Source: a virus
Lineage: Duplodnaviria > Caudoviricetes
Virus record (IMG/VR): IMGVR_UViG_3300014208_000026
Span: 64,001-128,000 of that record
Length of the DNA: 64,000 nucleotides
Direction: 5' to 3' (one strand)
Part shown: positions 5,026 to 62,774 of the stretch, in pieces
Numbering within the stretch: position 1 is the stretch's first letter
How the letters are laid out: each line of letters starts with the position of its first letter
Notes under the pieces: generated by a model
What the model was told of the DNA's origin: nothing
Seen by the model: the letters and a program-made list of their open reading frames with translations, nothing else
Database searches by the model: none
Position numbers and translations under genes: made by a program

Positions 5026-5652
5026 ATGAGCAGTACAAAACGAGTTGCTAGTCGATATCTACAGCGTCAGTGGCCTCAGAATTTCAGAACCAAGACGGCC
5101 GGTGAGGTCATCCACGTCAAGGACAAGGCGGGAGACGCTCTGGAATGGGCTTATGCCCGTGGCCCGTCCGGTCGTGAGATTTCCCCGAACTTCAAGTTCA
5201 ACGAGAAGAACGTCAAGGTGCTGGCAAAAGTGATGCGCTCCCTGTTGGCCGCCCTTGGCCACACCATGACGGGGTACCACACTTTCACCAAGATCAAGTC
5301 GGTTGGCCTCTCCCCCGACGGCAAGTTGGGTGGCAAGGGTTACGTGATAGAGATCGCCACCATCCGTAAGCACCTGACGAACTGTATCGAGGCCCTCTCT
5401 TCGATCACTGACACCCTCTATGACGAAGTGAAAGCCCCGCATTGGGCCGCCGCTTCTCGTCAGGAGACTCCAGAAGCCAAGCAGGAACTCCATGAGGTCG
5501 TGGAGCAGGCCAAAGAAATCAAAGAGGACCCTGAGGGTTGGGCCGAAGAGCAGGAAGAGGATATGGGGGACGACGTTCCAGAGATCAACGACGAACCCGA
5601 TGAGCCTGTGAACCTTAAGACCGCCAGTACACGCTATCGCAGGAGCCGCTAA
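5026..5652 (+). CDS. Hypothetical protein with N-terminal RVASRYL tag
   Basis: RBS AGGAGG; MSSTKRVASRYL..TKTAG; acidic C-terminus ending LKTAS. Confidence 0.75.
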   Translation: MSSTKRVASRYLQRQWPQNFRTKTAGEVIHVKDKAGDALEWAYARGPSGREISPNFKFNEKNVKVLAKVMRSLLAALGHTMTGYHTFTKIKSVGLSPDGKLGGKGYVIEIATIRKHLTNCIEALSSITDTLYDEVKAPHWAAASRQETPEAKQELHEVVEQAKEIKEDPEGWAEEQEEDMGDDVPEINDEPDEPVNLKTASTRYRRSR

Positions 5653-18919: not shown

Positions 18920-20026
18920 GTGAGTTCTGCCGTGGGTGCTATTCTATACTTGACCAACGTCAAGGTTTTCGAAGAAGCCTTGGCAAACTTGAATCGGTCG
19001 ATTCTCTACCCGACTGACCGTTGGGATCTGGCTATCAACTACGACACGCTCATGAGAAACGGGAAGCGTTGGGCAGACTACATCATCGACAAGCTGTCTG
19101 TTCCTCCCGCCTATGCCAAGTCGGTGGAAATGATTTCCAGGGAGTTTGCCAAGCCTCGGCGTCCCAAGGATATTCCAGCTTGGTTCGAGAAGAACAAGAA
19201 GCGGTTGGAAGTCCTGCTCCTGGCTGACAAGTGGCCCCAGGCTTCTGAGAACGAGGGTACAGAGGGAGAGGTTTTCAAACACGGGGGGTTGACAATCCAC
19301 AACGTCATTCGAGCAAGCGGTAAGGCTCTCGAAGATGCTTTGAAGACCCTCGATATCGCGATGAGGAATGCTGCGGGTACGGGGATCTCGGATTTCCGGT
19401 CGGTGGTGTATGGGGACGTGTACCTCGTCGGGCAGTTGGGCCGAAAGAACTGGGCCGCTTGGTATATGCCCGCCAAGGATATGATTTACCTCCGACCTGG
19501 GGTCAGGGGCTTACCTCCCGAAGAGTGCGCCCAGCACCTGTTGCACGAGTTCGGGCACCGGTACTGGAAATTGAAGTTGTCTCGTGAGGTAATGGGGACT
19601 TGGAACTCACACCACTACCTCATGGAACATGGAATCGGTGCGGGTGGAGACGCTGAAGCCAAAATGCCGGAGGTCGGGGATGCACTCCCTATGAATGTGG
19701 ATAGGAAAAAGGTCAAGGTTGAAAAGATTGAGAAGTCGACTTATTCTCTTGTTGCCGTAGATACGGGGGCTCCTGCGGGCACAATATCTTTTAGTCAGCT
19801 ATTCAATTGGCTGTACAATTATTCAATAGCCGAGAAGTTTCCGACCCTGTATGCCCGCACGGATGCCGAAGAGCACTTCTGCGAAGCATTGTCCCTGAGG
19901 GCTCTGGGCAAGCTGAAGGCTCACAACCTGGAAGCATTCGACAAGATTGTTCTGGGAGAAGGGAAGGGACAGGGGGCTGTGAGGGTTGCGGGTCGGTGGT
20001 TGCGAGGAAAGGGCTGGGCAAGATGA
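18920..20026 (+). CDS. Zincin metallopeptidase (MPTase / lethal-factor-like) with C-terminal RVAGRWL tag
   Basis: LLHEFGHRY plus downstream YARTDAEEHFCEAL. Confidence 0.75.
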   Translation: MSSAVGAILYLTNVKVFEEALANLNRSILYPTDRWDLAINYDTLMRNGKRWADYIIDKLSVPPAYAKSVEMISREFAKPRRPKDIPAWFEKNKKRLEVLLLADKWPQASENEGTEGEVFKHGGLTIHNVIRASGKALEDALKTLDIAMRNAAGTGISDFRSVVYGDVYLVGQLGRKNWAAWYMPAKDMIYLRPGVRGLPPEECAQHLLHEFGHRYWKLKLSREVMGTWNSHHYLMEHGIGAGGDAEAKMPEVGDALPMNVDRKKVKVEKIEKSTYSLVAVDTGAPAGTISFSQLFNWLYNYSIAEKFPTLYARTDAEEHFCEALSLRALGKLKAHNLEAFDKIVLGEGKGQGAVRVAGRWLRGKGWAR

Positions 20027-20787
20027 ATCACGCTACATCAGTTGCTTTGATGAAGTTCCTTTCAGGGGTCGCTAGGAGACTCGGAGTGGGAAATGACACA
20101 TATATTGTGGGAGGAGCTGTGCGTAATTTTACGCTTGATCCAACAGGACTCAAGTATCCGATCAAAGATTTGGATATTGTAATAGATCCGGTATCTGTAG
20201 GCAGAAAAGATGCTTCTGATTGGTTTGCAAAGCAATTGTCTGAGAACATACCAGCAGAAACCAAGATCGTTACGAATAATTATGGAGTTGCGATATTGTC
20301 GGTAGTTGGGGAATGGGTTCTTGATGGGCAATCTATGCGCGGAGAGGTCATTGAGATTGCTAATGCTCGAAAAGAGAGTTATGGGGGTGGGGATAGTGAA
20401 AAGGATTCGGGAAAAGGATATAAACCTCATATGGTTGAACCAGCGACTATATATGAAGATATAAAAAGAAGAGAGTTCACCATGAATTATCTCCTCTGGC
20501 GTTTGTATGATCTTGCAGATGGTCCAGACAAAGCTGAGATATTGGATCTTGGGGGTTGTGGACTAAGGGATCTTAAAGAAGGTGTGTTGCGTTGCCCCTC
20601 CGATCCGGACAAGACTTTTTCCGATGATCCTAGTAGGCTTTTGAGGCTTTGTAGGTTCTCTGTGAAATACGGCTTTAAGATACCTCCTGAAATAGTAGAG
20701 TCTGCTAGAAGAAATGCGCATAAACTCAAGAACATACCTCCTAGTGCTCTTTCCAATTTACTCATTAAAATACTAGAGGGAAAATAG
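20023..20787 (+). CDS. cca: Class II tRNA nucleotidyltransferase (CCA/poly(A) polymerase family), N-terminal catalytic part of a split gene
   Basis: YIVGGAVRN, KDLDI (DxD), EIANARKESY, DIKRREFTMN, GLRDLKEGVLR, FSDDPSRLLRLCRF. ATG 20023 overlaps the upstream TGA. Confidence 0.85.
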   Translation: MNHATSVALMKFLSGVARRLGVGNDTYIVGGAVRNFTLDPTGLKYPIKDLDIVIDPVSVGRKDASDWFAKQLSENIPAETKIVTNNYGVAILSVVGEWVLDGQSMRGEVIEIANARKESYGGGDSEKDSGKGYKPHMVEPATIYEDIKRREFTMNYLLWRLYDLADGPDKAEILDLGGCGLRDLKEGVLRCPSDPDKTFSDDPSRLLRLCRFSVKYGFKIPPEIVESARRNAHKLKNIPPSALSNLLIKILEGK

Positions 20788-21822
20788 ATGCCTGCTTCAC
20801 CTGAAAAAAGATGGACTGAAGAACAAGACAGCACCCTGCGTGAAGGTTGGGCTGGTGGCGTTTCCGCAGAGGATCTCGCGTTGAAGTTGTTAAGAACGGA
20901 AACATCTATTCGCGGACGAGTTGCGATACTGGGAGTGCGGAGGAGTCCGGGATATATTTCTTCTATTCGTTCAAGTCTGAGTGTTGGTAAGCGTTTTAGT
21001 TGGACGGAAGAAGAGGAGAATATGCTACGTGTCTTTTACGAGGAGCAAGGGCTGTCTTACGAGGAGGTGGCTGTTAAATTACCTGTTGCTAAGACCTATA
21101 CTGCAATCCGGATGAAAGTACGGAAACTAGGGCTTCACCACACTAAAGAACAGTTTCTAGCAGTTTGTAGTCGTATGTCTATGGGGGACAGAAATGGCAT
21201 GTACGGAAAACCCGGGATTAATCTAGGGAAATCTCCTTCGGAAGAAACACGGAATAAGATAAGAGAGAACAAGCTGGAGGGTTTTGCTTCTGGGAGGCTA
21301 CATGGCATGGTTGGCCCTCTTAATCCTGCATTTGGTAAACCCAGCTCTATGCGCGGTAAACATCTTCCGGATTCTGCAAAGCAGACTCTTAGCCAGAAAG
21401 CCCGTGTCCGGTGGTTGGATAGGTCTGAGCAATATAAGTCAGACCATTTGTTAAAGATGCGTAAAGGCTGGATAACCTGGGCTATGAGAACGGAGGAAAA
21501 CAGAACTTGGATTGAGAAACTGGTAGCAATATGGCTGCAAGAAGAGGCTCTGGCATTTACGGAGCAGACACAGGTCGGTTTCTATATTGTGGATTTCCTA
21601 GTCGGTAATAAGGTGATCGAAACGCAAGGCGACTACTGGCATGCCAATCCTTCTGTTTACAGTCAGTTGGACTCCACGCAGAAATCAAATGTACGGAGAG
21701 ACAAGGCCAAAGCAACTTACCTGAAAAATCGAGGTTTCGGATTTCTGTCTTTGTGGGAGTTAGACCTGAAAAAGAATCCCGAGGGCTGTCGAAATCTACT
21801 ACGGGAGTTCTTAGCCTCATGA
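20788..21822 (+). mobile_element. Free-standing homing endonuclease (Myb/NUMOD3-like repeats plus Vsr/DUF559-like nuclease) inserted in cca
   Basis: WTEEQD/WTEEEE repeats; NGMYGK/NPAFGK..SEETR NUMOD3-like motifs; YIVDF..IETQGDYWHAN..RRDKAK..GFGFLSLWE. Confidence 0.8.
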
Positions 21823-23939
21823 ATACAACTGCTGCAAAAAAAGCCCTGCTCGAAATGCAAAGGCTTGGTCTGCTCGAAGTCATCAAGGAGATCGTCCAGG
21901 AGAACAAGGCGTTCCGGAACGCCCTTGGGAACTGGTCCGAGAAGACGGACCTGACGTTCTTGTTCGACCTCATGGATCTTGGTATGCCGGTAGGACGCGG
22001 GCTCTCTTTCCTCAGCAAGCCGGAGCAGGAGAGGGTTCGAGAAATCACCGTCGATATGGACGCCGCTGAAGGCCGCAAGTTCGTGACCATTCTGGAGCAG
22101 CCCGGACAGGTTATCAGCACTCCAGCTCTCATGGAAGAGTTCAATCTGAAAGGCCCCCAGGTTCGGCAAATCATGTTGACCGCGAGGGCTCTGTTGCTTG
22201 ACCGTCCAGAGTTGGCTCAGGACGCTGCAAAGTGGGAAGGGTTGGTTCGGGACCAGTTGCGGCAGGTTTTGAAGACCGCAGCGTGGGCCCCCTCAAAGAC
22301 CCCTCTTCGCAGAAGTGGCATATCCCGTTCATGGGATGCTTTCGCCAAATCCCATCGCAAGAACTTCTGGTATCTGCCCTATACCGTGGCCGCGAACGGG
22401 GAGATGATCGAAGATCAGTTGAAGCGTATGTACGTGCGGTACTGGACGGAGGACCCTACCACTGCGGACGTTACGTTGGGGGTGTTCCTACGGGGACACG
22501 AAGAGTTCCTGCGTAAGCGTGGAGAGGCAAACCAGAGGGCTCTGGACAACGCAGGCGATCAAGAGGCCCTGTTGGGCCGCTTGATGGCCGGAACGGCCTC
22601 TGCAGAAGATGTACGCGAGATCGGCAAGCTGTGGTCGAAAGACAACGTGTACACCTCCGATACCCGCAGAGCAAAAGATACGGTCAAGCGTAGAATACTT
22701 GAGCTGGCTCGACGACACCATTGGATGTCCGGTTACGGGGTGGACAAGCGGGTTACGAAGTACCCGTACATTTTGTACGTCGACACGCCCTTTGGTCAGG
22801 TGGCTTTCCACGAACAGTTGCCCTCTGTGCATCGGGAATATCCTGGGGAGTGGGACCGGAAACACGCAACGTGGGAAAGGGCCGCTAAGGTCTTGGAACG
22901 GTACGGGTTGAAAGACGGCGGCGGGGGAGCAACGATGGAGAGTAGAGTCGCATCGAGGTATCTGCAAGGCGGTGTGGGGATGGATAAGCAAAGTTCGGTT
23001 CGGCAGGCTCTTTTACATGTGACCGGTTCCCCCTCAATCACCCCCTGCCCCAAGAAACCCGACCGAGTGTGGACGATCCTGCGGGATAAGCACCCTCGAT
23101 TGCCGTTCACTCCGATCTTTGAAGTGAATGCGTTCCCCGAAGACCAGATTCATGACTGGAAGTGGTCTCAGGGGAACCTCCGGTATTTCAGCAGGATCAC
23201 TACCGAGAATCAGCCCCGGTGGTTGCTTTTGGAGTTCGGGAAGGAAGAACCGAAGATGTGCCCGAAGTGCGACAAGGATTTCCCCGCTGGTTCGAACTTC
23301 TGCCCCGATTGTGGGGTAAAGCTGGTAAGCAAAGTTGCATCGAGATACTTGTGCACAGCAGCGGCAGAAGAGGTCGTCGACTCCAACCTCAAGGGTGTCG
23401 TCGAGGTTCCCAGGAACACGTTCCCTGTGGAGGTTCTCCCTCCCAAGAAGAAGCGGAAAAAATGGCCCTTCGAAGGGTTCATTGATTTCCAGGGGTTGGA
23501 GATCGACGTAGAGAACGACAAGGGATCGGTGCGGAGCGGGGTGTCAGAAGATGGAACCCCGTGGGCTGTCGAAATGTTCTGGCCGTACGGTGAGATCAGA
23601 GGGACAGAAGGGGTCGACGCTCCTGACGCCTTGGATGCATACGTAGGCCCCAACCACGATTCCTCTCTTGTCGTGGTTATTCACCAGCATGACCCAGACA
23701 CGGGAAAGTACGACGAGGACAAGGTCATGCTGGGGTTCGACTCTACTGAGGAAGCGATCGGGGCGTACAAGAAACAGTACAGCAAGCCTGGGTTCTATGT
23801 AGAAGGTGAGTATACCGAAATGCCCATTGGGCAGTTCTGGCGGTGGGTGCATGATGACAAGAACAGGGGCAAGAAAGTGAAGGCTCGGGTTCAAAGAATC
23901 GCCTCTAGGTGGTTGAGGGAGGATTCTTTTGCAGAGTAG
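21819..23939 (+). CDS. Polyprotein: CCA C-terminal helical part, unknown domains, zinc ribbon and inorganic pyrophosphatase-like domain
   Basis: AKKALLEMQRLGLLEVI continues the CCA fold; CPKC..CPDC; FQGLEIDVEN..YGEI..DALDAYVG..DEDKVMLGF; three RVAS-type tags. ATG 21819 overlaps the endonuclease stop. Confidence 0.75.
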   Translation: MNTTAAKKALLEMQRLGLLEVIKEIVQENKAFRNALGNWSEKTDLTFLFDLMDLGMPVGRGLSFLSKPEQERVREITVDMDAAEGRKFVTILEQPGQVISTPALMEEFNLKGPQVRQIMLTARALLLDRPELAQDAAKWEGLVRDQLRQVLKTAAWAPSKTPLRRSGISRSWDAFAKSHRKNFWYLPYTVAANGEMIEDQLKRMYVRYWTEDPTTADVTLGVFLRGHEEFLRKRGEANQRALDNAGDQEALLGRLMAGTASAEDVREIGKLWSKDNVYTSDTRRAKDTVKRRILELARRHHWMSGYGVDKRVTKYPYILYVDTPFGQVAFHEQLPSVHREYPGEWDRKHATWERAAKVLERYGLKDGGGGATMESRVASRYLQGGVGMDKQSSVRQALLHVTGSPSITPCPKKPDRVWTILRDKHPRLPFTPIFEVNAFPEDQIHDWKWSQGNLRYFSRITTENQPRWLLLEFGKEEPKMCPKCDKDFPAGSNFCPDCGVKLVSKVASRYLCTAAAEEVVDSNLKGVVEVPRNTFPVEVLPPKKKRKKWPFEGFIDFQGLEIDVENDKGSVRSGVSEDGTPWAVEMFWPYGEIRGTEGVDAPDALDAYVGPNHDSSLVVVIHQHDPDTGKYDEDKVMLGFDSTEEAIGAYKKQYSKPGFYVEGEYTEMPIGQFWRWVHDDKNRGKKVKARVQRIASRWLREDSFAE

Positions 23940-60365: not shown

Positions 60366-61145
60366 ATGGGCGTAATTTTTTCGCAGGGAGACATTTTGGG
60401 CCGTGGGGACCTGGATGCGTTTTTCCAAAATTCTCTCGGGAATCCCCAGAATTTATTCGAGATCACCTATGCCATCTACTACGTGACCCCCGTCACCGAG
60501 GTAGAGGTTCTCATTGGTTCTGCCGCCCGTGTCCCCGTGAATCCCGCCGTGGGGGAATACTACGCGGCTCTCCAGGTTCCCGCCAGTGCCGCCGCTGGGG
60601 ATTACCGTATCCGGTGGACGTTCAGGGAGTTCGCAGGAGCACCCCAGCAGTTGATCGTCCAGGAGTGGGGGGTTGTGCTGGCAGGTACCACTACGGGGAC
60701 GAGTACGTTTTCTACGGGTGAAACAGAGATGATCTGGAAGTTGAGAGTATTTTTAAGAGATTCCAACCCAGATCGCAACTACCATTTCAGACCACCTGAA
60801 GCAGAAGGCTCGGTCGGCCAGTACAATCAAGTGTTCGGGCAGATATGGGAAGATGATGAGTTGCTTATGTATCTCGAAGCAGCTCTCGACTGGTTCAACA
60901 TGTTCCCGCCCGAGACAGAAGCATACAGCACGCTTGACCTGCTGTTACAAAGAAAGCCTGTCTGGCGAACTGCTATCATAACAGGTGCAATTGCACATGC
61001 TTGTACAGCATTAGCATTAAATTGGATCTCGGACGAATTTTCCGTGGAAGAGAATACTAATATAAAAGTACATTTAGATAGTGATTATTCGTTAGCTATT
61101 CCGATTGGGGAGCTATGGGATATTATTTATGGAGATACTAAATGA
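60366..61145 (+). CDS. N-terminal half of a fractured putative neck/head-tail adaptor: N-extein plus 34-aa N-intein
   Basis: Ig-like start, then KLRVFLRD..WEDDELLMYL..NWISDEF followed by SVEENTNIKV (intein block A). Confidence 0.7.
   Translation: MGVIFSQGDILGRGDLDAFFQNSLGNPQNLFEITYAIYYVTPVTEVEVLIGSAARVPVNPAVGEYYAALQVPASAAAGDYRIRWTFREFAGAPQQLIVQEWGVVLAGTTTGTSTFSTGETEMIWKLRVFLRDSNPDRNYHFRPPEAEGSVGQYNQVFGQIWEDDELLMYLEAALDWFNMFPPETEAYSTLDLLLQRKPVWRTAIITGAIAHACTALALNWISDEFSVEENTNIKVHLDSDYSLAIPIGELWDIIYGDTK
61041..61142 (+). mobile_element. Split intein N-fragment (34 aa, Ser1)
   Basis: SVEENTNIKVHLDSDYSLAIPIGELWD resembles intein block A plus the 'I.EL' motif; stop codon follows. Confidence 0.65.
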
Positions 61146-62149
61146 ATAAAAAGCAAGCTCTTTCAGTATTGAAAATGAATTTCAAATTACTTGAGACTCT
61201 TATAGAGGAGGGCATTCTTGCCTGTGATTCTTCTGGAGACATAGATCCGGAGTCTTTTGTTTGTCTTGAAGAAAACTTCCATTTTGTGTTCTGTTTAGAG
61301 TGCGGGGCTAGGGTGGCTCTTCTGAACGGTAAGCATCTTAAAAGCTGTTCAGGCATGACACAGGCTGCTTATTTAGAGAAACATCCAGGGGCCGCTGTGC
61401 TGTCGGGCATGTCCGCCGCATTCAAAACCAAGACCGAAGACCAGAAACGGGCTCAGTCCGAAAAGCTCAAGGCCAGATTCCAAACTCCCGAGGGGGAGGT
61501 TACTCGACAGCAGATTTCAGAAGCCTCAAAGAAAATGCAGGCGTCAGAATACGGGGAGATAGCTGCTGAGCACCTTCGAACAATGACCCGCAGTCCTGAA
61601 GGGCGTGCTCGTATTAGTAAGCAAATGTTTGCACGGTACGCTTCTGGGTGGAATCCTGTAAAAGACTGGCATGCTGCAAACAAAGAGGAGTCTAAGCAGA
61701 GGGCTTTTCATGCCAGGAGCTTTATCCAGAAAAAGAAATCAAAGCCTCATCTCGCTTTCAAAGCTGCGATGGAAGAAGCAGGGTTATTGGGTTTCGAGAC
61801 TGAGTGTCCTGTGGGGTATTACCACATAGATGAAGCTCGGCCCGATCTTAAGTTGTCCGTGGAAATTGATGGATGTTTCTGGCATGGTTGTGTAGATTGT
61901 GGTTTTCCAGGAACTCCTGGAATAAAGAAAACAGATAAGCGGAAAACGACTTTTCTGCTTAATAGAGGATGGACGATACTCCGCTTCAACGTGTGCGTCA
62001 TTAAAAAAGACTTGGCCGGTTGTCTAGATAAAGTAAGGCAGAGCGTGGAATCCTTGTCACAGCAGAAAACCACTCTCAAAGTACGTGCTACAATCTGCGA
62101 CATTTTCGGAGCCCATAAAGAGGAGGTGTCCAATGGCACTAAGCCCTGA
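61142..62149 (+). mobile_element. Free-standing Vsr/DUF559-like homing endonuclease between the split-intein halves
   Basis: CLECG..GKHLK.C zinc finger; YHIDEA..SVEIDGCFWHGC..DKRK..NRGWTILRF. Confidence 0.8.
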
Positions 62150-62546
62150 AGTCAGAAAGGCCATTCGAGAAGCCTATGAGGCAGGTACCCTGCAAGTTGA
62201 TTCCGTCGACGCCGCTACCGGTAAGGTGTTCCGTGCTGTAGTTGCGGACGTTCTGCGGCACCGGACTCCCCATAAGCCTCTTGTCAGAGTAGAGGTTGAT
62301 ACGGGGCAGTGGGTCGAGTGTACTAAGGACCATAGCCTGTTTGGCAGGGATGCTGAGGGGCAGATTGTTCCGGTAGAAGCTGGAACCTTGCAGCCTGGGG
62401 CTTCGATTGTGGTGGTGAAGGACGGGCAGGCGGTAGACGTCCAGGTGATTTCCTATGAGGAAGGCGCACCCGCGGAATTTACCTTTGACTTGGCCGTTCC
62501 GGGGCCGGAGAACTTTGTACTCTCCAACGGTATTTTGGCTCACAAC
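62133..62546 (+). mobile_element. Split intein C-fragment (blocks B, F, G; ends HN, +1 Ser)
   Basis: Carries TxxH and terminal HN but lacks block A, which is encoded at 61041. Confidence 0.85.
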
Positions 62547-62774
62547 TCCTATTCGTGTGGTGGAATATCATTAGACCTAGAGAAGTCATCTAAGTATGAA
62601 TCAATCAAACAGAACGCTGAGAGTCAATTTGATAAGGCTACGGAAGCTAAAGCTAGAACAACAAAGTATGTTAGAGGATTAAAACAACAACGTTTCGGAA
62701 TGGGTGTGCGCAGTTCCTTTGGTCCGGCAACAGGTCATGGTATATTATCACCCCGCTCGTTTACGGGCGGTTAG
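62133..62774 (+). CDS. C-terminal half of the fractured gene: 138-aa C-intein plus 75-aa C-extein
   Basis: RBS AGGAGG then ATG 62133; block B ECTKDHSLF; FTFDLAVPGPENFVLSNGILAHN then SYSCGGISLDLEKSSKY. Confidence 0.85.
   Translation: MALSPEVRKAIREAYEAGTLQVDSVDAATGKVFRAVVADVLRHRTPHKPLVRVEVDTGQWVECTKDHSLFGRDAEGQIVPVEAGTLQPGASIVVVKDGQAVDVQVISYEEGAPAEFTFDLAVPGPENFVLSNGILAHNSYSCGGISLDLEKSSKYESIKQNAESQFDKATEAKARTTKYVRGLKQQRFGMGVRSSFGPATGHGILSPRSFTGG

Follow-up and report, generated by a model that had tools for sequence, protein, structure and literature searches.

The DNA analysed here, hereafter the window, is a stretch of 64,000 nucleotides (nt) covering positions 64,001 to 128,000 of the IMG/VR record IMGVR_UViG_3300014208_000026, a 257-kb virus of the Caudoviricetes from a groundwater metagenome. 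The completeness estimate of this record is about one half, and the phage is therefore very large. At the locus under study a gene resembling those of class II nucleotidyltransferases is interrupted by the open reading frame (ORF) of a predicted homing endonuclease. Four gapless, consecutive ORFs occupy the plus strand at 18920-20026, 20023-20787, 20788-21822 and 21819-23939. The second (254 residues), termed the N-half, corresponds to the head and neck of the nucleotidyltransferase, and the third (1035 nt, 344 residues) is the free-standing endonuclease gene. The body and tail, termed the C-half, comprise the first ~155-160 residues of the fourth (21819-22298, as delimited by alignments A1 and A3), which in its entirety encodes a multi-domain protein of 706 residues. 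Very long ORFs are open under translation table 11, ruling out an alternative genetic code, and a blastn search of the locus against the phage collection gave no match. An earlier reading of the locus made from the letters alone (the sequence-only reading) had placed a TAG-ATG junction at 20787/20788 and an ATGA overlap at 21819, and both the ORF coordinates and these junctions proved exact on re-reading. It had also let the downstream ORF end near 22050, which is too short, since the nucleotidyltransferase part extends to about 22290 and the ORF to 23939.

The N-half (20023-20787) displays a PolyA_pol head (PF01743, E = 6e-12) followed by positions 1-25 of the 64 positions of PF12627. Its motifs comprise GGAVRN, DLD, IEIANAR, RRE and DDPSR, so that the GG..R sequence and the DxD carboxylates of the PolyA_pol head are present. 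Homologues of the N-half (406 at E ≤ 1e-3) are mostly 390-445 residues long and ~60% identical across the whole query, and the loop in which its C-terminus (...LIKILEGK) falls is short, variable and part of the PF12627 region. For the C-half, residues 1-374 of the downstream ORF were used in an exhaustive phmmer search, which returned 219 matches, 128 of them at E ≤ 1e-10. The C-half domain lies at positions ~250-400 of homologues of ordinary length and deeper inside proteins of up to 3381 residues; in this phage group the enzyme is therefore frequently one module of a polyvalent protein. In alignment A1, the N-half and then the peptide MNTTAAKKALLEMQRLGLL, which starts at 21819, fill consecutive columns of the 390-445-residue homologues with zero residues missing. 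More than 100 uninterrupted homologues of ~400 residues align end to end with the N-half plus the first ~155 residues of 21819-23939, and the match of the two halves to intact homologues is far beyond chance. A second comparison, between the split locus L007 and its closest unsplit relative L013, gave 84% identity in the N part and 77% in the C part, with nothing deleted and ~3 residues added at the junction. Alignment A1 and this comparison confirm the earlier statement that the C-half continues exactly where class II enzymes continue. Both halves retain every residue that is invariant in their alignments, and no second PolyA_pol gene was found in the genome record.

In the PDB the closest sequence match is poly(A) polymerase I of Escherichia coli (E = 1e-16), and CCA-adding enzymes come next. 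The NCBIfam search ranked the PcnB subfamily first (89 bits, against a cut-off of 306), with the CCA models far under their cut-offs. The enzyme has in common with class II tRNA nucleotidyltransferases and PcnB (PF01743/PF12627) a head with GG..R and DxD and the neck motifs. Its clade differs from them in the sequences RRE and DDPxR, in an insert in the head and in its frequent occurrence within polyvalent proteins. Because of the non-canonical motifs and of NCBIfam scores that do not come near a cut-off, only a superfamily-level name is used here, and the enzyme is best described as a putative, divergent class II nucleotidyltransferase belonging to the CCA/poly(A) superfamily. The label "CCA-type" given in the sequence-only reading is thus upheld as regards the superfamily, while CCA addition is only a candidate activity in view of the RRE and DDPSR motifs, the PcnB best match and the missed cut-offs.

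The endonuclease (20788-21822) comprises an N-terminal part bearing two Myb/GcrA-like helix-turn-helix (HTH) repeats and two NUMOD3-like GxxNGMYGK motifs, and a C-terminal DUF559/Vsr-like (EDxHD) nuclease domain. Pfam matches are to GcrA, DUF559 and MTES_1575, and PF07460 is on record for several homologues. Across 23 homologues, E243, D269, E278, GDYWH at 281-285 and W323-E324 are invariant and D305 is near-invariant, where the EDxHD residues were mapped via alignment to Vsr and not residue by residue to I-Bth0305I. The AlphaFold2 model has a mean predicted local distance difference test (pLDDT) score of 82.8, exceeding 90 in the nuclease domain. Structural similarity search using Foldseek revealed the I-Bth0305I catalytic domain as the best PDB match (PDB code 3r3p; E = 8e-6, template modelling (TM) score of 0.84), followed by E. 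coli Vsr (PDB codes 1cw0 and 1vsr). Because fold and catalytic residues match, the insert is identified, on its modelled structure, as a free-standing Vsr-like/EDxHD homing endonuclease of the I-Bth0305I type, for which cleavage is predicted. A search of viral contigs with the endonuclease retrieved one distant match only. In contigs of two groundwater DNA runs the same phage, together with its endonuclease, turned up in a second study, and none of these contigs had a joint that skips the endonuclease.

At the 5' junction (20775-20790), a Shine-Dalgarno-like AGAGGGA (20775-20781) is encoded by the last N-half codons (E-G-K), and the TAG stop (20785-20787) abuts the endonuclease ATG at 20788. 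Several loci have an N-half C-terminus of the pattern K-(I/L)-(L/F)-E-G-(G/K/R), whose E-G-x codons form, where the DNA was read, a Shine-Dalgarno sequence 5-8 nt upstream of the endonuclease start (counterparts are GGAGGGGGG in L003 and GAAGGAGG in L007). The EGG stop/start design is common to L003, L007 and L017. At the 3' junction (21803-21822), a purine-rich GGGAG (21803-21807) lies within the end of the endonuclease ORF, and the C-half ATG at 21819 overlaps the endonuclease TGA. The equivalent overlap is GTGA in L003, and in L007 the ATG is located just ahead of the endonuclease stop. A promoter and terminator scan of 19700-22300 revealed nothing beyond chance, and the junctions are consistent with one transcript and coupled translation into three proteins. 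N-half and endonuclease are in the same frame, separated by one stop, both here and in L003; a read-through fusion was considered as a conserved feature and rejected because the two are out of frame in L006.

The arrangement of N-half, endonuclease and C-half, with stops and starts that abut or overlap, recurs in at least five other metagenomic phage contigs, namely at loci L003, L006, L007 and L017, and partly at L018. The L003 copy, on a 132-kb contig, is 49% identical to that of the window in the endonuclease, 66% in the N-half and 47% in the C-half. The C-half is a stand-alone protein of 151 residues in L006 and L007, and at least nine further proteins of the representative library start at the same split point and stand alone. 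On an N-domain tree of 148 rows the split state changes six times, with at least four of these changes forced by well-supported branches. The intragenic endonucleases form a single clade (99/99) in which those of L006 and L007 are sisters (100/99), whereas the host genes of these two loci belong to different clades and that of L007 is sister to an unsplit gene. This would be the pattern expected of horizontal homing into one site. When L007 is compared with its unsplit relative, 18-19 of every 20 residues are identical along most of the protein, and the figure drops to 7-10 of 20 solely in a stretch of ~60 residues flanking the insertion site, a local dip that fits, as expected, sequence imported with the endonuclease or a change of target. 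Distant endonuclease relatives (30-41% identity) are found immediately upstream of intact family genes, with overlapping starts, in L008, L009, L010 and L011. Site-specific double-strand cleavage of endonuclease-free alleles, and homing, are supported indirectly, because the same site is occupied in at least four lineages and the endonuclease and host-gene trees are incongruent. In L010 (2501-4754) the gene directly downstream of the endonuclease homologue (41% identity, inside the intragenic clade) encodes a canonical CCA enzyme that has an HD domain. A glutathione S-transferase gene is found on the same contig, which may be of cellular and not viral origin.

The base composition of the locus displays two sharp breaks. 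The G+C content at third codon positions (GC3) of 166 ORFs of the genome is 0.626 ± 0.071, against 0.349 for the N-half, which lies below every genome ORF, and 0.449 for the endonuclease, while host-like values are seen in the upstream ORF (0.64) and the C-half (0.70). One break falls where the N-half starts and the other where the endonuclease ends. Given a break that covers exactly these two ORFs, the simplest reading is that the endonuclease recently arrived with the whole catalytic half from a relative of lower G+C content. All three parts are host-like in composition in L003. The genome ORFs of lowest GC3 also include two more nuclease genes with a DUF559/Vsr-like domain, and endonuclease genes account for several of the ORFs with the lowest GC3 in this phage. 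One nuclease gene located outside the window (C1:254233-255216 of the genome; L015 811-1794; GC3 of 0.41) encodes HNH_3 and MTES_1575/DUF559 domains.

Between the split N-halves of L017 and L018, the ratio of non-synonymous to synonymous substitution rates (dN/dS) is 0.07 at a dS of 1.08, and over the first 152 endonuclease codons of the same pair it is 0.10; most other pairs are saturated (dS undefined). These values point to purifying selection on the split half. Prediction of the N-half and C-half as a complex, with alignments for both chains, scored 0.71, compared with 0.01 for the best of three controls; the mark of 0.71 is reached by 58 of 80 solved complexes and by 2 of 110 mismatched pairs. 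At least 95% of contacts are common to the runs, partner pLDDT is at least 83, and the predicted interface (about 70 contacts) joins residues 206-253 of the N-half with residues 1-39 of the C-half. This prediction had been put forward together with the sequence-only reading, and it passed its controls subject to the caveat on family structures given below.

Taken together, the locus likely encodes an enzyme in pieces, in which a homing endonuclease gene has entered a loop of a nucleotidyltransferase gene with neither intron nor intein and the two halves re-associate. The sequence-only reading had arrived at the same interpretation, which is supported by colinearity, the lack of a splicing element, the endonuclease fold, recurrence, purifying selection and the heterodimer prediction. 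What can be seen directly is the colinear split, the fold and residues of the endonuclease, the repeated use of one site and the compositional break; from these we infer cleavage, homing, separate translation, re-assembly and the addition of nucleotides, in the following manner. The Vsr-like/EDxHD homing endonuclease gene would sit in the variable loop just after the catalytic head-neck part, and one message would yield three proteins through coupled stop/start junctions. The cassette would bring these junctions itself, as a Shine-Dalgarno sequence in the last N-half codons and a Shine-Dalgarno sequence plus ATGA at the 3' end. The catalytic N-half of 254 residues and the RNA-binding C-half would then re-join non-covalently via a helical interface, with the C-half acting as the N-terminus of the 706-residue multi-module protein and its pyrophosphatase domain. 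The endonuclease would cut endonuclease-free alleles of co-infecting relatives and be copied in with flanking sequence, and in this phage the whole N-half may have come in along with it.

Several observations weigh against this interpretation. The trees pair the N-half with that of L003 and place the C-half beside the unsplit P0146, and the approximately unbiased (AU) test leaves congruence standing (p = 0.36); the argument for import of the N-half comes from composition, the trees being compatible with it but no proof. Because the halves are two pieces of one fold with solved structures, the complex score may mirror the model's memory of single-chain family structures and so not be independent evidence of binding. 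Throughout the clade, RRE replaces RRD in motif B and DDPSR replaces EDxxR in motif D, and no curated NCBIfam cut-off is reached. The spacing between the Shine-Dalgarno sequence and the C-half start is long (11 nt), and an in-frame GTG at 21753 may be an alternative C-half start. Finally, a 13-kb contig from ENA (that of P0131) has an N-half plus endonuclease with no adjacent C-half. The N-half of this contig is a PolyA_pol protein of 231 residues, followed by the homologous endonuclease and then by a NUDIX/ART-PolyVal gene on the opposite strand.

An extension of the split-enzyme interpretation, which we regard as tentative and somewhat less likely to be right than wrong, is that a dedicated endonuclease lineage makes its home in phage nucleotidyltransferase genes and acts as a domain shuffler. 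Homing with one-sided co-conversion would carry the head-neck half from phage to phage, uncoupled from the RNA-binding half, generating a natural chimeric heterodimer whose translation signals are supplied by the cassette. In the window, a low-GC catalytic half would be paired with a resident high-GC body fused to a polyvalent protein that bears a pyrophosphatase.

The strongest competing explanation holds that the insertion killed the gene, the halves being relics that have not yet decayed while only the endonuclease and the downstream modules matter. The GC3 values agree with it in that N-half and endonuclease look recently arrived, with little time for decay, as does the P0131 contig, where the C-half is not adjacent. 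It is nevertheless unlikely, since all family-invariant residues are kept in both halves, the split N-halves show a dN/dS of 0.07, and this is the sole gene of its family in the genome record. In addition, lineages that are only 35-67% identical to one another have kept the split layout, their ORFs intact and their junctions coupled.

Rather less probable still is that N-half and endonuclease constitute a two-gene mobile cassette, with the N-half working alone or with some other partner and the C-half being merely a domain of the 706-residue protein. The compositional island, which is exactly N-half plus endonuclease, and the contig of P0131, which carries these two genes only, are what such a cassette would predict. 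This contrasts with the C-half being kept directly downstream in five independent loci and with the extensive predicted interface of about 70 contacts. In class II nucleotidyltransferases, moreover, the head-neck part by itself is without the RNA-binding body and tail, and an N-half working alone would be in this position.

It is very improbable that the endonuclease instead resides in an intron (group I or II) with a core overlapping the coding sequence, splicing restoring one ORF. Vsr-like endonucleases do occur in group I introns, such as I-Bth0305I in recA (PMC3239194, PMC2677866). However, the Rfam search of 19800-22600 at E ≤ 10 revealed no intron, returning two chance-level matches to eukaryotic small-RNA families, and four related loci gave no match at gathering thresholds, in agreement with the earlier claim that the insert leaves a ribozyme no non-coding room. 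The insert is also open reading frame from its first base to its last. Start and stop signals are present for every piece separately and are conserved between loci, and the pattern of change in the endonuclease is that of an evolving protein (identity of 49%, with synonymous change; dN/dS of 0.10).

The scarcely credible remaining alternative, a "fractured gene" (Dassa et al. 2009) in which split-intein halves flank the endonuclease and trans-splicing ligates the products, shares the endonuclease family, and such a locus seems present at 61142-62774 of the window, but a Pfam scan of the three ORFs (N-half, endonuclease and 706-residue protein) detected no intein/Hint domain and the junction lacks a C/S/T-...-HN-C/S/T signature. 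Pfam does detect an intein elsewhere in the window, showing that the method works on this genome. Compared with intact homologues the junction has a surplus of only ~3 residues where the N-half ends and ~5 where the C-half starts, so few that there is no room for split-intein halves. The absence of intein motifs noted in the sequence-only reading therefore stands.

The upstream ORF (18920-20026; 368 residues) has a weak match to zincin MPTase-PolyVal and ends in the peptide tag RVAGRWL, its TGA stop overlapping the ATG of the N-half (ATGA). No similarity was detectable between this ORF and either the N-terminal modules of polyvalent homologues or the upstream ORF of L017. In the 706-residue protein the C-half is followed by an uncharacterised domain, RVASRYL, a zinc ribbon, a second RVASRYL, the InPase pyrophosphatase domain and RIASRWL. 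L017 has a syntenic protein of 935 residues that comprises the C-half plus InPase, and for this phage group it is normal that the C-half is fused with a zinc ribbon and InPase. The domain between the C-half and the first internal tag (residues 283-354; 22665-22880) resembles the small stand-alone proteins P0289 and P0291 (E about 1e-8) and has no Pfam family match. In L008 (4325-6151) an intact homologue of the enzyme is fused to a C-terminal domain weakly similar to the fungal tRNA ligase cyclic phosphodiesterase (2H-phosphoesterase-like), a fusion that suggests an RNA-end repair context for the enzyme clade. The neighbouring modules, InPase here and the 2H-phosphoesterase-like domain in L008, would fit a role in RNA-end repair or modification.

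The tag [RK]-V-A-[SG]-R-[YWF]-[LC] ("RVASRYL") has 10 in-frame copies in the window, on the plus strand at 5044, 19985, 22947, 23334, 23898, 25378, 26863, 34917, 49769 and 53431, and 13 on the plus strand of the genome, compared with 4 in a reversed-protein control. In large multi-domain proteins the copies are located at either terminus or at borders between modules, and in other phages at the N- or C-terminus of enzyme homologues. Its codons vary at synonymous sites, indicating a protein-level signal, with packaging, docking or processing as possible roles. At 61142-62149 of the window lies a second endonuclease gene of the DUF559/Vsr-like kind (GC3 of 0.46), which encodes a ROS/MucR-type zinc finger. 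It is placed (60366-62774) between an ORF ending in SVEENTNIKVHLDSD and another in which Pfam detects an intein splicing domain and whose intein part ends in ...LAHNS. The region looks like the split-intein "fractured gene" that Dassa et al. 2009 described, and this genome would then hold both that arrangement and the intein-less split.

The closest precedents for the split enzyme are an SbcD-like locus and the nrdA/mobE locus of phage Aeh1. The former, reported by Dassa et al. 2009 (PMC2677866), is one locus split by a Vsr-like endonuclease ORF without an intein, whereas most of the Vsr-like/EDxHD members described so far reside inside group I introns or split inteins, and their targets are genes of DNA replication and repair (PMC2677866, PMC3239194). 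The window endonuclease shares with the I-Bth0305I-type EDxHD enzymes of these studies the fold, the conserved residues, NUMOD/HTH N-terminal modules, a phage habitat and insertion into enzyme genes. Its lineage differs in the Myb/GcrA-like repeats and in being tied to nucleotidyltransferase genes, both upstream and intragenically. In Aeh1 (Friedrich et al. 2007; Crona et al., PMC3045599), as here, relatives of the endonuclease stand beside an intact gene in other phages, and the upstream and intragenic positions seen in the present family appear, by analogy, to mirror mobE beside and inside nrdA. The endonuclease and host gene are different, an HNH-type mobE and nrdA there and a Vsr-like/EDxHD enzyme and a nucleotidyltransferase here. 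The window locus is also unlike Aeh1 in the recurrence of its split across several lineages and in the additional modules to which its C-half is fused. For the Aeh1 split enzyme activity has been demonstrated, while the window enzyme is known from sequence. The Aeh1 comparison drawn in the sequence-only reading is consequently a close precedent for an intein-less split but not for the endonuclease family, which is Vsr-like and not mobE/HNH. Splitting of a gene by a free-standing endonuclease is itself already known, and it is as a host gene that the nucleotidyltransferase appears to be new. The host gene, the recurrent single site and the presence of one endonuclease lineage at two gene positions appear undescribed in the searchable literature.

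With this locus, an enzyme predicted to modify RNA ends would join the short list of genes that survive a split by an endonuclease without a splicing element, so far Aeh1 nrdA and the metagenomic SbcD-like gene. The split would mark a natural permissive point between the catalytic and RNA-binding parts of class II nucleotidyltransferases, which may be usable for split-enzyme or domain-swap work on nucleotide specificity. As a warning for annotation, "PolyA_pol" ORFs of ~250 residues in large phages may be halves of an enzyme, not truncated pseudogenes. The loci, with the endonuclease upstream of an intact gene, inside the gene and missing from close unsplit relatives, can be read as an evolutionary sequence, which bears on the passage of free-standing endonucleases from a place next to a gene to one within it.

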